From assembly GCF_041248615.1 (NCBI RefSeq), contig NZ_CP158426.1: 64,000 bases of DNA, one strand, 5' to 3'. A program made the position numbers and the translations under genes. Numbering within the stretch: position 1 is the first letter of the stretch; every line of letters begins with the position of its first letter. The stretch comes from Escherichia coli (GTDB lineage: Bacteria > Pseudomonadota > Gammaproteobacteria > Enterobacterales > Enterobacteriaceae). Of this stretch, positions 1-43,798 are shown in pieces. The notes below the pieces were generated by a model that worked only from the letters and a program-made list of their open reading frames with translations, searched no databases and was not told where the DNA came from.

Positions 1-1556
1 CCCGGATGACTGGAGATACTCTCTTCAATCTCGCGCGTACCCAGCCGATGTCCGGCAACGTTAATCACATCGTCAGTACGCCCGAGAATAAAGTGATAAC
101 CGTCAGCATCGCGGATGCCCCAGTCAAAGGTGGCATACACCGGACGGGAAAACAGCGACCAGTACGTCTTCACAAAGCGGTCGTCGTCGCCCCAAATGGT
201 CTGAATACACCCCGGCGGCAGCGGCCCTTCCACCACCAGCATCCCTTTCTCGTTGACCCCGCACGGTTCGCCGGTGACTTCATTGAGCAACTGCACGTTA
301 TAGCCATACATCGGCACGCCGGGGCTTCCCAGACGCGTCGGCCTGTCGTCCAGACCGCGGGCAATCGCCATAATCGGCCAGCCGGATTCGGTCTGCCAGT
401 AATTGTCGATCACCGGCACATCCAGCGTATTGCTCACCCAACTGGCGGTTGGCTCGTCCAGCGGCTCCCCCGCCAGATAGAGCACTTCCAGCGACGAGAG
501 ATCGTGTTTGCGAATTTCGGCGGTAGGGAATTTTTTCAGCACGCGAATGGCGGTTGGCGCTGAGAACATTCGGCTCACCTGATATTTCTCGACGATTTTC
601 CACCACACGCCGCAGTCCGGCCAGGTCGGCAATCCTTCGTAAACGATAGTCGCCATCCCCGCCAGCAGCGGCGCGTAGACGATATACGAATGCCCCACCA
701 CCCAGCCGATATCCGAGGCACAGAAGAACACGCCGCCCGCTTTGCCGCCAAAAATGGTGTCCATCGAGGTCGCCAGCGCCACCGCATATCCGCCAACGTC
801 ACGCTGCACGCCTTTAGGTTTGCCGGTCGTGCCGGAGGTGTAGAGAATGCAGGAGGTTTCGTTGGATTCCAGCCACGCCACCGGTACCCGCGCGCCGATG
901 TGTTGATGGCGCAACGACGCGAAATCGACATCCCGCCCGCTGACGCGTGCCATTTTCGCCAGCCCGCGATCCACCAGTAAAACGTGGCGCGGCTGATGCT
1001 GCGCCTGACTTATCGCATCGTCGAGCAATTTTTTATACGGAATAATTTTGCCACCGCGCGCTCCGGCATCTGCCGAGACAATCAGCACCGGTTTAGCGTC
1101 ATCAATTCGCGCCGCCACGCTGTGCGAGGCAAATCCCCCAAACACCACCGAGTGAATAGCGCCAATGCGCGCGCAAGCCAGCAGAGTAATATGTGCTTCG
1201 GCAATCATCGGCATATACACCAGCACCCGATCGCCGCGCTGCACACCCAGCGAGCGCAGCATTGAGGCCACCGCATTCACTTCGTCATGTAACTGGCGGA
1301 AGGTAAAGGTGCGCTCTTCTTCTGTTTCCGAAGAGACGGCAATCAGCGCCAGCGCCTCTGGCTGTTTCTCCAGCCAGCGGTCGATAGCGTTGTGGCACAA
1401 GTTGGTTCGGCCTTCACAAAACCAACGGGCAAACGGCGGGTTGCTGTGGTCGAGCGTTTGCGTAAAGGGCGTCTGCCAGTCAATACGCCGGGCCTGCTCG
1501 GCCCAGAACTGCTCCGGTTCGTTAATCGAACGCTGATAAAATTCGCTAAAAGACAT
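1..1556 (-). CDS. prpE: propionyl-CoA synthetase (propionate--CoA ligase), N-terminal part; 3' end runs off the window
   Basis: Reverse-strand ATG at 1554-1556 with AGGAG-like SD upstream; N-terminus reads MSFSEFYQRSINEPEQFWA; last gene of prpBCDE order; not in ORF track because no stop inside window. Confidence 0.88.
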   Translation of the reverse strand, partial: MSFSEFYQRSINEPEQFWAEQARRIDWQTPFTQTLDHSNPPFARWFCEGRTNLCHNAIDRWLEKQPEALALIAVSSETEEERTFTFRQLHDEVNAVASMLRSLGVQRGDRVLVYMPMIAEAHITLLACARIGAIHSVVFGGFASHSVAARIDDAKPVLIVSADAGARGGKIIPYKKLLDDAISQAQHQPRHVLLVDRGLAKMARVSGRDVDFASLRHQHIGARVPVAWLESNETSCILYTSGTTGKPKGVQRDVGGYAVALATSMDTIFGGKAGGVFFCASDIGWVVGHSYIVYAPLLAGMATIVYEGLPTWPDCGVWWKIVEKYQVSRMFSAPTAIRVLKKFPTAEIRKHDLSSLEVLYLAGEPLDEPTASWVSNTLDVPVIDNYWQTESGWPIMAIARGLDDRPTRLGSPGVPMYGYNVQLLNEVTGEPCGVNEKGMLVVEGPLPPGCIQTIWGDDDRFVKTYWSLFSRPVYATFDWGIRDADGYHFILGRTDDVINVAGHRLGTREIEESISSHP

Positions 1557-1595
1557 AATGCTCTCCTGTTGAACTTACGCCTTACCGCTGTTTGC

Positions 1596-3047
1596 TTAAA
1601 TGACGTACAGGTCGAGATACTCATTGACCGGCATCTGTTCCAGGCGAGCTCTGTCGAGAGAAACCTCCAGAATGCGCTGTTGCTGGCGAGTCGGGAACTG
1701 GCGCGCGAGATTGATTTTGAATTTATCGACCAGTTTCGGAATGCCATCCTGACGGCGGCGAGCATGACCAATGGGGTACTCCACCACCACTTCTTCAAAG
1801 CGCGTGCCGTCGGTGAACTCAAGGGTTATGGCATTGGCGATGGCACGTTTTTCCGGGTCGTGGTAGTCAGCGGTAAATGCCGGATCTTCAAAGCAATTGA
1901 TCTTCTCGCGCAGGGCGTCGATGCGTTTATCTTGCGCAACGTTGTCCTCGTAATCTGCCGCCGTTAAGCGTCCGAACAGCAGCGGGATCGCCACCATGTA
2001 CTGAATGCAGTGGTCGCGGTCAGCCGGGTTATTGAGCGGCCCTTTTTTGTCGATGATGCGAATACAGGCTTCGTGGGTGCGAATGGTCACTTTTTCGATA
2101 TCCGCCGCCGTTTTGCCTGCTGCCTGCATCTGTTCATAGAGCATCATCGCCGCTTCAACTGCCGTCTGGGAGTGGAACTCCGCCGGGAAGGAGATTTTGA
2201 ACAGCACATTTTCCATCACGTAAGAACCGTACGGACGCTGGAAGCGGAACGACTCACCTTTAAAGGAGACGTCGTAGAAGCCCCATACTGGCGCAGTCAG
2301 GGCTGACGGATAACCCATTTCGCCCGTTTTTGCCATCAATGCCAGACGTACCGCGCGGGAAGTGGCATCGCCCGCCGCCCAGGATTTACGCGTGCCGGTG
2401 TTCGGCGCATGGCGATAGGTGCGCAACGACTGACCGTCCACCCACGCCAGCGAAACGGCGTTGAGAATTTCCTCGCGGGTCAGGCCGAGCATTTCTGCAA
2501 CCACGGCGGTGGAAGCCACTTTCACTAACAGAACGTGGTCGAGGCCGACGCGGTTAAAGGAGTTTTCCAGCGCGATGCAGCCCTGAATTTCATGGGCTTT
2601 GATCATTCCGGTCAGCACCTGCTTCATGGTCAACGGCGCTTTGCCGCTAGCGACCGCGTTGCGCGAAAGCCAGTCCGCCGTTGCCAGAATGCCGCCGAGG
2701 TTGTCGGAAGGATGGCCCCACTCCGCCGCCAGCCAGGTATCGTTGAAATCGAGCCAACGGATCATCGCGCCGATGTTAAATGCCGCCTGGACGGGGTCGA
2801 GCTGGAACTGAGTTCCGGGGACGCGCACGCCGTTGGGTACGACGGTGCCAGGGACAATTGGCCCCAGCAGTTTTTTACAGGCCGGGTATTCGAGAGCTTC
2901 CAGACCGCAGCCGAGCGTGTCGAGCAGGCAGTAATGTGCGGTCTCGTAGGCCACTCTGGAGCTGATTTCGTAGTTCATCACGTAATCGACGATATCAACG
3001 ATTTCACGATCAAATTCCGGGCGGATGTTGTTGATTTGAGCTGACAT
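1596..3047 (-). CDS. prpD: 2-methylcitrate dehydratase
   Basis: 483-aa ORF, MmgE/PrpD-family sequence, position between prpC and prpE. Confidence 0.92.
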
Positions 3048-3080
3048 TGGGTACGTTTCCTTATTGTTATTCGTAGAGGT

Positions 3081-4250
3081 TTACTGGCGCTTATCCAGCG
3101 CGACAAACTGGCGGTCTTCCGGTCCAACATAATTGGCGGAAGGACGGATAATTTTGTTGTCCTGACGTTGTTCGATAATGTGCGCCGCCCAGCCGGTGAC
3201 GCGGGCGATAACAAACAGTGGGGTGAACATCTCGGTAGGAACGCCCATCATGTTGTAGGAAACAGCGGAGAACCAGTCGAGATTGGGGAACATCTTTTTG
3301 CTCTCCCACATCACTGTTTCCAGGCGATCGGCGATGTTGTACATCTTCAGCGAGCCGCCTTCCTGCGAGAGCTGCTTCGCCACGCGTTTGATCACCTGAT
3401 GACGCGGGTCGGCGATGGTATAAACCGGATGACCAAAACCAATGACCACTTCTTTGTTTTCCACCCGCTTGCGGATATCGGCTTCGGCTTCGTCCGGCGT
3501 TTCGTAGCGTTGCTGGATCTCCAGCGACACTTCATTCGCCCCGCCGTGCTTCGGCCCGCGCAGTGCACCAATCGCGCCAATAATCGCGGAATACATATCA
3601 GAGCCGGTGCCCGCAATCACCCGGCTGGTAAAGGTGGAGGCGTTAAACTCGTGTTCGGCGTACAGCACCAGCGAAATATGCATCGCCTTTTCCCAGCTTT
3701 GCGATGGCTTTTCGCCGTGCAGCAGATGCAGGAAGTGACCGCCGATGGAGTCGTCATCGGTTTCCGGCTGGATGCGTTCGCCGTTGTGGCTGTAGTGATA
3801 CCAGTAGAGAAGAATCGAGCTAAGTGACGCCAGCAGTTTGTCGGCAATATCCCGCGCACCAGATACAGTGTGCCCCTCTTTTTCCGGCAGTGTGCAGCCG
3901 AGCGCGGAAACGCCGGTGCGCATAACATCCATCGGGTGCGACGCCGCTGGTAAGGCTTCCAGCACAGTACGCACGTTAGCCGGTAAACCGCGCAGGGCTT
4001 TCAGTTTCGTTTTGTAGGCGGCGAGTTCGTCACGGGTCGGCAGTTTGCCGTGGATCAGCAGATGCGCCACTTCTTCAAATTCGCAATGTTCCGCCAGATC
4101 AAGAATGTCGTAGCCGCGGTAATGCAAATCATTGCCACTTTTACCCACGGTGCAGAGCGCCGTATTGCCCGCCGGAACGCCAGAAAGTGCCACCGATTTT
4201 TTCGGTTTAATGACATGGGTACTGTTTTGCAGGATCGTTGTGTCGCTCAT
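3081..4250 (-). CDS. prpC: 2-methylcitrate synthase
   Basis: 389-aa ORF, citrate-synthase family, between prpB and prpD. Confidence 0.92.
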
Positions 4251-4294
4251 ATTGTCCTCGTCATTTGTAGGGTCGAGATATTTTTCGTTGTGTT

Positions 4295-5185
4295 TTATTT
4301 CACCTGGCTACGGGCAAACAGGTCGTCGAGCTTCTCTTCGTACTGATAGTAATTGATGCTTTCGTACAGCTCGTTGCGGGTTTGCATGGTGTCGATGACG
4401 CTTTTCTGCGTGCCTTCCTGACGCAGGACGTTGTAGACATGTTCGGCGGCGCGGTTCATGGCGCGAAACGCTGAAAGCGGGTACAGCGCCATTGCAACAT
4501 GGGCACTGCGTAATTCATCGGTAGTAAACAGCGGTGTTGCGCCAAATTCGGTAATATTGGCGAGGATCGGCACCTGCACCGCATCGGCAAACTGGCGGTA
4601 CATGGCGAGTTCGGTAATCGCCTCCGGGAACAACATCTCGGCACCCGCTTCAACATAGGCCTGCGCACGCTCAATCGCCGCATCCAGCCCCTCTACCGCC
4701 AGCGCATCGGTGCGCGCCATGATCACAAAATCAGGATCGGTTTTCGCATCCACCGCCGCGCGGATCCGATCCACCATCTCCTCTTTCGAGACGATCGCTT
4801 TGTTCGGACGATGACCGCAGCGTTTCGCACCAACCTGATCTTCAATATGCAATCCTGCCGCACCGGCTTTAATCATCGATTTCACGGTGCGCGCCACGTT
4901 AAAAGCAGAAGAACCAAAACCGATATCCGCATCCACCAGCAGCGGCAGCGAACAAACGTCGGTGATACGGCGAATATCTGTCAGCACGTCATCAAGAGTA
5001 GAAATACCGAGATCGGGCAGCCCCAGCGACCCTGCCGCCACGCCACCGCCGGAGAGATAAATTGCCTGATATCCGGCACGCTGCGCCAACAGCGCATGGT
5101 TGGCGTTAATGGTGCCAACAATCTGCAATGGATTTTCTTTAGACAGTGCAGCGCGAAACGCTTTACCTGGAGAGTGTAGAGACAT
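4295..5185 (-). CDS. prpB: 2-methylisocitrate lyase
   Basis: 296-aa ORF, isocitrate lyase/PEP mutase family, first gene of prp operon. Confidence 0.92.
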
Positions 5186-5231
5186 AGCCCATCCTTTGTT
5201 ATCAACTTGTTATTTGCGTTGATAAAGACAA

Positions 5232-5247
5232 AGCAAGGGGTGTGCCA
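5232..5247 (-). promoter_or_regulatory. candidate sigma-54 (-24/-12) promoter for prpBCDE
   Basis: Minus strand reads TGGCAC-ACCCC-TTGCT (consensus TGGCAC-N5-TTGCW), about 47 bp upstream of prpB start; divergent prpR is a sigma-54 enhancer-binding protein. Confidence 0.6.
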
Positions 5248-5423
5248 CAATTGACTGAATAAAATTAAATGTTTAATTTCAATTTGTTATAAATAAAGTC
5301 ATGAAGTAATCCGCAAATATGCGTTTCAGTTAACGTTTCAGGCAATGTTTCACCGCGTTTCATTGCAACAATTATGAAACAAGACTAAACCCAATATTCG
5401 GTTTCTTAACTTTGCGGTGCGCT

Positions 5424-7010
5424 ATGGCACATCCACCACGGCTGAATGACGACAAACCGGTGATCTGGACGGTATCTGTAACGCGCCTGTTCGAGCTGTT
5501 TCGCGATATCAGCCTCGAGTTTGATCATCTGGCGAACATTACCCCTATCCAGCTTGGCTTTGAAAAAGCGGTGACCTACATCCGCAAAAAACTGGCAAAC
5601 GAACGCTGTGACGCCATCATCGCTGCTGGCTCTAACGGCGCGTACCTGAAAAGCCGCCTGTCAGTGCCAGTTATTTTGATTAAACCGAGCGGCTACGATG
5701 TGTTACAGGCACTGGCAAAAGCCGGAAAACTCACCTCTTCTATCGGCGTTGTCACTTATCAGGAAACCATTCCAGCGCTGGTGGCGTTTCAAAAAACCTT
5801 TAATTTGCGCCTCGACCAACGTAGCTACATTACCGAGGAAGACGCACGCGGGCAGATTAACGAGCTAAAAGCTAACGGCACCGAAGCGGTGGTCGGCGCG
5901 GGGCTGATTACCGATCTGGCAGAAGAAGCCGGAATGACCGGAATTTTTATCTATTCCGCCGCCACCGTGCGCCAGGCATTCAGCGATGCGCTGGATATGA
6001 CGCGCATGTCGTTACGCCATAACACTCACGATGCCACCCGCAACGCCCTGCGTACTCGTTACGTGCTGGGCGATATGCTCGGTCAATCACCACAGATGGA
6101 ACAGGTACGGCAGACTATTTTGCTGTATGCCCGCTCCAGTGCGGCGGTGTTGATTGAGGGGGAAACGGGGACGGGCAAAGAACTGGCAGCCCAGGCGATT
6201 CATCGGGAATATTTTGCCCGCCACGATGCGCGACAGTGCAAAAAATCGCATCCGTTTGTTGCCGTCAACTGCGGGGCGATTGCCGAATCGCTGCTGGAAG
6301 CAGAGCTGTTTGGCTATGAGGAAGGGGCGTTCACCGGCTCGCGACGTGGAGGTCGCGCCGGGCTGTTCGAAATTGCCCACGGCGGTACGCTGTTTCTGGA
6401 TGAGATTGGCGAAATGCCGCTGCCGTTGCAGACTCGGCTGCTGCGGGTGCTGGAAGAAAAAGAGGTCACCCGCGTCGGCGGGCATCAGCCTGTTCCGGTA
6501 GATGTGCGGGTCATTAGCGCCACTCACTGCAATCTGGAAGAAGATATGCAGCAAGGACGTTTTCGCCGTGATCTGTTTTATCGGCTGAGTATTTTGCGTC
6601 TGCAATTGCCACCACTGCGCGAGCGGGTGGCGGATATTCTGCCGCTGGCGGAAAGCTTTTTGAAAGTGTCTCTGGCGGCGCTCTCCGCCCCGTTTTCTGC
6701 CGCATTACGCCAGGGATTACAGGCAAGCGAAACCGTGCTGGTGCACTACGACTGGCCGGGCAATATTCGTGAACTGCGCAATATGATGGAGCGACTGGCG
6801 CTGTTTTTAAGTGTGGAACCGACGCCGGATTTAACGCCGCAATTTTTGCAGCTGCTACTGCCGGAACTAGCGCGCGAGTCAGCGAAAATTCCCTCCTCAT
6901 CCTTGCTGACACCACAACAGGCACTGGAGAAATTTAATGGCGATAAAACAGCAGCGGCGAATTATTTAGGTATCAGCCGGACGACGTTCTGGCGGCGGCT
7001 GAAAAGCTGA
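5424..7010 (+). CDS. prpR: sigma-54-dependent propionate catabolism activator
   Basis: ORF 5412-7010; likely start [10 protein letters not shown] at 5424 (528 aa); AAA+ sigma-54 interaction motifs ([13 protein letters not shown]), C-terminal HTH. Confidence 0.9.
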
Positions 7011-42467: not shown

Positions 42468-42478
42468 TGGATTTGCCC

Positions 42479-43384
42479 CTATATTTCCAGACACCTGTTA
42501 TCACTTAACCCATTACTGGCCTGCTGCCGCAGATATTCCCGTGGCGAGCGATAACCCAGTGCACTATGCGGATGCCATTCGTTATAATGCTCGAACGCCT
42601 CTGCAAGGTTCTTTGCTGCCGTTAACCCGTCTGGTTTAGGCATGATACTGATGTAGTCACGCTTTATCGTTTTCACGAAGCTCTCTGCTATGCCGTTACT
42701 CTCCGGACTCCGCACCGCCGTGTTCTTCGGTTCAAGCCCCAATATCCGGGCAAACTGCCGTGTTTCATTAGCCCGGTAGCATGAACCATTATCCGTCAGC
42801 CACTCTACTGGAGACGCCGGAAGCTCGTTGCCGAAGCGGCGTTCCACCGCTCCCAGCATGACGTCCTGTACTGTTTCACTGTCGAAGCCGCCCGTAGTGA
42901 CTGCCCAGTGCAGTGCCTCACGGTCACAGCAGTCCAGCGCGAACGTGACTCGCAGTTTTTCTCCGTTATCACAGCGGAACTCGAACCCGTCAGAGCACCA
43001 TCGTTGATTGCTTTCTTTCACGGCCACTTTGCCAGTATGTGCCCGTTTCGATGGCGGTACAGCGGTTTTTCGCTCAAGCAACAGCGCATTCTGGCGCATG
43101 ATCCGGTAAACACGTTTGGCATTGATCGCAGGCGTACCATCAAGTTCGGCCTGTCTGCGAAGCAGCGCCCATACCCGACGATAACCATACGTGGGCAGCT
43201 CTCCGATAACATGGTGTATACGGAGAAGCACATCCGTATCATCTGAGTGACGGCTGCGGCGACCATCTTTCCAGTCATCGGTTCGTCTGAGAATTACGTG
43301 CAACTGCGCACGCGACACCCGGAGACAACGGCTGACTAAGCTTACTCCCCATCCCCGGGCAATAAGGGCGCGTGCGCTATCCAC
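42479..43384 (-). CDS. insD: IS2 transposase OrfB (InsD)
   Basis: 301 aa, recognised IS2 InsD sequence ([30 protein letters not shown]...). Confidence 0.9.
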
Positions 43385-43707
43385 TTTTTTGCACGCCCGT
43401 ATTCAACGGCTTCTTTAAGGAGTTCATTTTCCATCGTTTTTTTGCCGAGCAGGCGCTGGAGTTCTTTAATCTGCTTCATGGCAGCAGCAAGTTCAGAGGC
43501 AGGAACGACCTGCTCTCCTGCGGCCACAGCAGTAAGACTTCCCTCCTGGTATTGCTTGCGCCAGAGAAATAACTGGCTGGCTGCCACACCGTGTTGCCGG
43601 GCAACAAGGGAGACCTTCATTCCCGGTTCAAAACTCTGCTGAACAATAGCGATCTTTTCCTGTGTAGTACGCCGTCTGCGTTTCTCCGGTCCTAAGACAT
43701 CAATCAT
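43342..43707 (-). CDS. insC: IS2 OrfA (InsC)
   Basis: ORF 43342-43752; conserved start [13 protein letters not shown] at 43707 gives 121 aa; overlaps insD as in IS3-family frameshift arrangement. Confidence 0.88.
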
Positions 43708-43798
43708 CTGCTCTCCAATGACTAGTCTAAAAACTAGTATTAAGACTATCACTTATTTAAGTGATATTGGTTGTCTGGAGATTCATGGGGCCAGTCTA

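Follow-up and report, generated by a model that had tools for sequence, protein, structure and literature searches.

The prp system in E. coli and Salmonella

Control of prpBCDE by PrpR is a textbook case of regulation by sigma-54 and an enhancer-binding protein. The arrangement resembles that of Pu/XylR and nifH/NifA, an enhancer located 100-160 bp upstream being separated from the -24/-12 core by a bendable, AT-rich spacer that includes an IHF-like site. PrpR is unlike the activators of XylR/NifA-type systems in its 2-methylcitrate-responsive PrpR_N sensor domain and in the half-site that it uses.

The sigma-54 ChIP-seq peak OS01 of E. coli K-12 contains the motif GTGGCACACCCCTTGCT, has a FAT occupancy score of 17 and is listed with prpB as its downstream gene (Bonocora 2015, PMC4591121); the status of the prpB promoter in EcoCyc in 2015 was 'predicted' (PMC4591121). 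A gSELEX peak of RpoN holoenzyme was also obtained in vitro between prpR and prpB (Shimada 2021, PMC8743547). In Salmonella, prpR is likewise divergent from the operon, the homologous position holds a sigma-54 promoter, TGGCATAGCCTTTGCTTT, and GTTTCAT/ATGAAAC half-sites are present (PMC3844500; PMC4987338). That Salmonella site gave a sigma-54 ChIP-chip ratio of 11, and when a promiscuous activator was supplied, expression of prpBCDE in the wild type was 45-fold over that in the delta-rpoN strain (Samuels 2013, PMC3844500). Two reviews name PrpR, sigma-54, IHF and the co-activator 2-methylcitrate as requirements for prpBCDE expression, and state that CRP activates both divergent prp promoters (PMC5566544; PMC9452892). 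A CRP site in the intergenic region is attributed to Lee et al. 2005. The first of these reviews also describes IHF and 2-methylcitrate dependence of Salmonella prp, citing Palacios and Escalante-Semerena 2000 for the IHF requirement and for the dependence of expression on rpoN and PrpR (PMC5566544). The prp system has been put to use in propionate-inducible pPro vectors and propionate biosensors (PMC5566544; PMC9452892).

We analysed a 64,000-nucleotide stretch of the E. coli chromosome, hereafter called the window. Its prp locus is the K-12 prpBp locus (b0331-b0335; PrpR, b0330) in another E. coli strain, with the identical 17-mer GTGGCACACCCCTTGCT, the same predicted 36-nt leader, the same gene order and the divergent prpR. 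Compared with other E. coli, the locus exhibits strain-level polymorphism only, and in the alleles sampled most of the variation is in the AT-rich spacer and beside the -24 element. The finding of a prpBCDE promoter here is correct and ordinary; it was already known and nothing about it is new. As a discovery it has little importance, and what the present check provides is confirmation that a genuine -24/-12 promoter was recognised from raw sequence, together with the coordinates of the parts in the window (Table 1).

Table 1. Positions of the prp genes and control elements in the 64-kb window
Feature	Position	Strand	Basis or detail
prpE, runs off the window start	about 1-1556	-	Collinear E. 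coli RefSeq annotation
prpD, 2-methylcitrate dehydratase	1596-3047	-	NCBIfam equivalog
prpC, 2-methylcitrate synthase	3081-4250	-	NCBIfam equivalog
prpB, methylisocitrate lyase	4295-5185	-	NCBIfam equivalog
Regulated operon prpBCDE	1-5185	-	NCBIfam equivalogs (PrpB, PrpC, PrpD) and RefSeq annotation
prpB ribosome-binding site and start codon	5183-5196	-	AAGGA 5196-5192 and ATG 5185-5183, read from sequence
Predicted prpB transcription start	5221 (+/-2 nt)	-	Predicted by the rule of Bonocora et al.
Sigma-54 core promoter of prpBCDE	5232-5248	-	-24 GG 5246-5245; -12 GC 5234-5233
AT-rich spacer between promoter and enhancer, with IHF-like sites	5249-5316		Consensus scan
Three direct GTTTCA half-sites, probable extra PrpR contacts	5323-5352		Starts at 5323, 5335 and 5347, 12 bp apart
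Probable PrpR enhancer site 1	5357-5380		Inverted repeat GTTTCAT-N10-ATGAAAC; half-sites match CGTTTCATGAAACG
prpR, 2-methylcitrate-responsive sigma-54 enhancer-binding protein, 528 aa	5424-7010	+	NCBIfam NF011953 equivalog

The -24/-12 element and its flanking genes

PrpB, PrpC, PrpD and PrpR all scored far over their NCBIfam equivalog cut-offs, with PrpR reaching 1009.6 bits against NF011953 (cut-off 703). The Pfam domains of PrpR are PrpR_N, Sigma54_activat (E = 1.4e-65), AAA_lid_14 and HTH_8, and the protein also has a Walker A motif, GETGTGK, and a GAFTGS loop, at residues 246 and 301 respectively. The initial annotation, which was made from the sequence, had described the divergent gene as encoding a sigma-54 enhancer-binding protein, and this is borne out by the PrpR equivalog hit, the Sigma54_activat domain and the GAFTGS loop. 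Its statement that the arrangement agrees with known prp regulation also holds, given the equivalog genes, the same layout in E. coli RefSeq annotation and the published sigma-54 data. The divergent control region that it placed at 5186-5411 is real, although its end coordinate had to be corrected. According to RefSeq annotation, the family profiles and the orthologues, prpR starts at ATG 5424 and not at TTG 5412, so the intergenic region extends from 5186 to 5423; the earlier end at 5411 arose because TTG 5412 opens the mechanical prpR open reading frame.

The minus-strand reading TGGCAC-ACCCC-TTGCT, reported previously for 5247-5232, was reproduced: the plus strand at 5232-5247 is AGCAAGGGGTGTGCCA, and its reverse complement is identical to that reading. 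Including the preceding base, the 17-mer on the minus strand at 5248-5232 is GTGGCACACCCCTTGCT. The motif at 5247-5232 matches the sigma-54 consensus TGGCAC-N5-TTGCW at 11/11 specified positions, and the spacing from the -24 GG to the -12 GC is exactly 10 bp. It lies within the 238-bp prpB-prpR intergenic region, pointing to prpB, and is the sole exact match to TGGCACNNNNNTTGCW on both strands of the window, where 0.09 exact-consensus matches would be expected by chance according to dinucleotide-preserving shuffles. All other GG-N10-GC sites in the window (GG and GC fixed) scored 9/11 or less. Bonocora et al. derive a transcription start by counting 19 bp downstream from the centre of the motif (PMC4591121). 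The motif centre is at 5240, and therefore the predicted start is 5221, giving a leader of 36 nt to the prpB start; this length equals the 'distance 36' of Table 1 in Bonocora et al. (PMC4591121).

Conservation was examined at two scales. A segment of 401 bases around the region was matched in 5219 of 5426 complete E. coli genomes, always with the annotation prpB and prpR on its two sides, and the 238-bp intergenic region alone was matched in 5218 of the 5426, mostly with 95-99% identity. We aligned the window with six other E. coli alleles taken from the divergent end of the match list, E. albertii and two Citrobacter loci (alignment A1). No sequence in this alignment, whether from the seven E. 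coli alleles, E. albertii or the two Citrobacter, departs from the -24 GG and -12 GC, and this includes E. coli alleles that differ by up to about 4% over the intergenic region. The core in A1 reads TGGCA[C/T]ACCC[C/A]TTGCT, while the neighbouring AT-rich spacer varies freely. At the sixth position of the -24 element the window has C, and T is found in E. albertii, in Citrobacter and in the published Salmonella motif.

For more distant comparisons, PrpR was used as the query in an ortholog search with one genome per species. At least 80 loci were listed, mostly unrelated bEBPs matching in the AAA+ domain only, and a locus was kept if it encoded a full-length PrpR with prpB divergent from it. 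Ten such loci were present among the matches listed: E. albertii, two Citrobacter, two Photorhabdus, Xanthomonas massiliensis and four Burkholderiales. Those left out were L006, L008, L009 and L012, with prpB absent from the 3 kb upstream, and L007, with prpB about 2.5 kb away; the Salmonella prp locus was not among the matches listed in this search. A 10-11/11 match to the motif, oriented to prpB and situated 39-58 nt before its start, was found at 10/10 of the kept loci among the matches listed. Across these ten loci (64,256 bp, both strands, 128 kb of strand) there were eleven matches of at least 10/11, ten of which are the prpB-proximal element. The eleventh, TGGCTCTGGCATTGCT, is a 10/11 match on the minus strand downstream of prpR in Photorhabdus caribbeanensis (L013:5132) and may be due to chance.

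The gene identities, the K-12 ChIP-seq 17-mer and the cross-genus footprint all support the earlier proposal of a -24/-12 promoter oriented to prpB. From these data we conclude, with very little doubt, that the minus-strand motif at 5248-5232 is the sigma-54 (RpoN) promoter of prpBCDE in its native divergent control region; no observation speaks against this assignment. Sigma-54 is usually found in transcriptionally inactive complexes (Bonocora et al., PMC4591121), and the two prp promoters share one short region in which they have been termed overlapping divergent promoters (PMC9452892); both observations would suit a holoenzyme that acts mainly as a non-transcribing roadblock or occluder modulating the prpR promoter, and not primarily at a prpB promoter. 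We consider this role highly improbable. With about 175 bp between it and the start codon of prpR, and on the far side of the enhancer, the motif is too distant to occlude the prpR promoter, and its orientation and 36-nt distance to prpB suit a working promoter. The 45-fold, rpoN-dependent increase of Salmonella prpBCDE with an active bEBP (PMC3844500) also argues against it. Less credible still, to the point of being negligible, is a chance motif with prpBCDE transcribed from an unrecognised sigma-70 promoter and PrpR serving as a conventional activator: a 16-nt consensus match did occur somewhere in 64 kb in 9/100 shuffles, and CRP dependence is more typical of sigma-70 promoters, but this match falls within the expected 238-bp region, faces the expected way, is conserved at 10/10 orthologous loci among the matches listed versus one background match, and coincides with sigma-54 occupancy in vivo and in vitro (PMC4591121; PMC8743547), while no sigma-70-like promoter was found at 5100-5500 and PrpR contains the sigma-54 interaction domain. 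In Salmonella, prpB is reported to be induced in an rpoN-dependent way and to lose expression when the GG/GC are mutated.

Enhancer half-sites, spacer and other control sites

For Salmonella, CGTTTCATGAAACG has been published as the consensus of PrpR enhancers (PMC4987338 Table 1). The half-sites of the E. coli enhancer fit this consensus, although the contiguous palindrome itself is absent. The inverted repeat of the probable enhancer site 1 has its centre about 147 bp before the predicted prpB start; its sequence is the same in E. coli, E. albertii and Citrobacter, except for two spacer positions and one half-site base in one Citrobacter. The half-site group at 5323-5380 is the densest GTTTCA/TGAAAC cluster in the 64 kb, with five hexamers in 58 bp where the window as a whole averages 0.07 per 100 bp; its distance upstream from the predicted start is about 100-160 bp. 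Arrays of 3-6 half-sites, spaced by about one helical turn, occupy the same relative place in Citrobacter, in Photorhabdus and at 3/4 Burkholderiales loci. From the sequence we infer which of these half-sites PrpR would occupy in E. coli.

The two Citrobacter loci (L003 and L004) contain a contiguous palindrome, GTTTCATGAAAC, as a second enhancer site that fits the published Salmonella consensus and is absent in E. coli. Alignment of this palindrome (GGTTTCATGAAACG, A1 columns about 117-150) with window positions 5323-5352 indicated that its left half is lost in E. coli and E. albertii. In its place E. coli has three direct TGAAAC repeats 12 bp apart, the first of which is TGAAAT in E. albertii. 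The E. coli pPro system is roughly threefold weaker than the Salmonella one (PMC5566544), and it is tempting to speculate that the lost palindrome half is linked to this weakness.

The spacer was scanned with the IHF consensus WATCAANNNNTTR. All of the spacer matches contain 1 mismatch (5263-5289), and the best-placed of them is TTTCAATTTGTTA at 5277-5289, centred near -62; the sole perfect match to the consensus is at 5200-5212, on the other side of the promoter. The exact IHF site in the spacer is a candidate assignment based on this consensus.

These elements are consistent with the following mechanism. RNA polymerase containing sigma-54 would bind the -24 GG and -12 GC as a closed complex that is unable to open alone, and the divergently encoded PrpR would bind the GTTTCA/TGAAAC half-site array. 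Binding of 2-methylcitrate, formed from propionate via PrpE and PrpC, to the N-terminal domain of PrpR would render its AAA+ domain active, and IHF-mediated bending of the AT-rich spacer would bring PrpR to the polymerase. ATP hydrolysis by PrpR would then lead to an open complex and to transcription from near 5221, which is 36 nt ahead of the ATG of prpB. cAMP-CRP would add catabolite control of both divergent promoters.

No convincing CRP site (TGTGA-N6-TCACA) was found in the intergenic region; the best matches, at 7/10, are at 5418-5433 and overlapping the -24 element, both implausible places. A simple scan of 5100-5500 detected no sigma-70 promoter for prpR. Between 20 and 37 bp ahead of the prpR ATG, at 5387-5404, is the near-palindrome AAACCCAATATTCGGTTT, most of which Citrobacter shares. 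It may belong to the promoter or leader of prpR, or serve as an operator.

The prpB leader and the surrounding window

The predicted prpB leader contains a palindrome at 5199-5225 (minus strand), a perfect 8-bp inverted repeat of the form TTATCAAC-N11-GTTGATAA that begins at about the predicted start. The right half of the palindrome together with the following bases makes up ATAACAAGTTGATAACAA, immediately downstream of the predicted start. This block is unchanged in the seven E. coli alleles, E. albertii and the two Citrobacter, and it is the best-conserved non-coding block of the region. The left arm of the palindrome has a C to T change in one E. coli allele, which in RNA would allow a G-U pair to persist. 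Folding of the leader predicted an 8-bp hairpin of unremarkable energy (z = -1.28), and a search of the whole window with Rfam yielded no known RNA families. The perfect IHF consensus match at window positions 5200-5212, TATCAACTTGTTA, lies inside this conserved block and the leader palindrome, downstream of the predicted start.

It is doubtful, though conceivable, that ATAACAAGTTGATAACAA is an undescribed regulatory element of prpBCDE. The block could be a second, downstream site for IHF or another protein that modulates the sigma-54 complex. Alternatively, it could form a 5'-terminal RNA hairpin or an Hfq-type A-rich site affecting mRNA stability or translation.

The window is collinear with E. 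coli strain E300010, at about 98.6%, over the prp-yah-bet-ykg-rcl-ecp region. Relative to E300010 it contains a 1.33-kb insertion at about 42470-43797, far from the prp region, which is a copy of IS2. Both IS2 genes are on the minus strand (TnpA, 43342-43752; TnpB, 42479-43384), and the imperfect terminal inverted repeats are at 42476-42508 and 43757-43789. The insertion interrupts a gene annotated in E300010 as encoding a helix-turn-helix domain protein.
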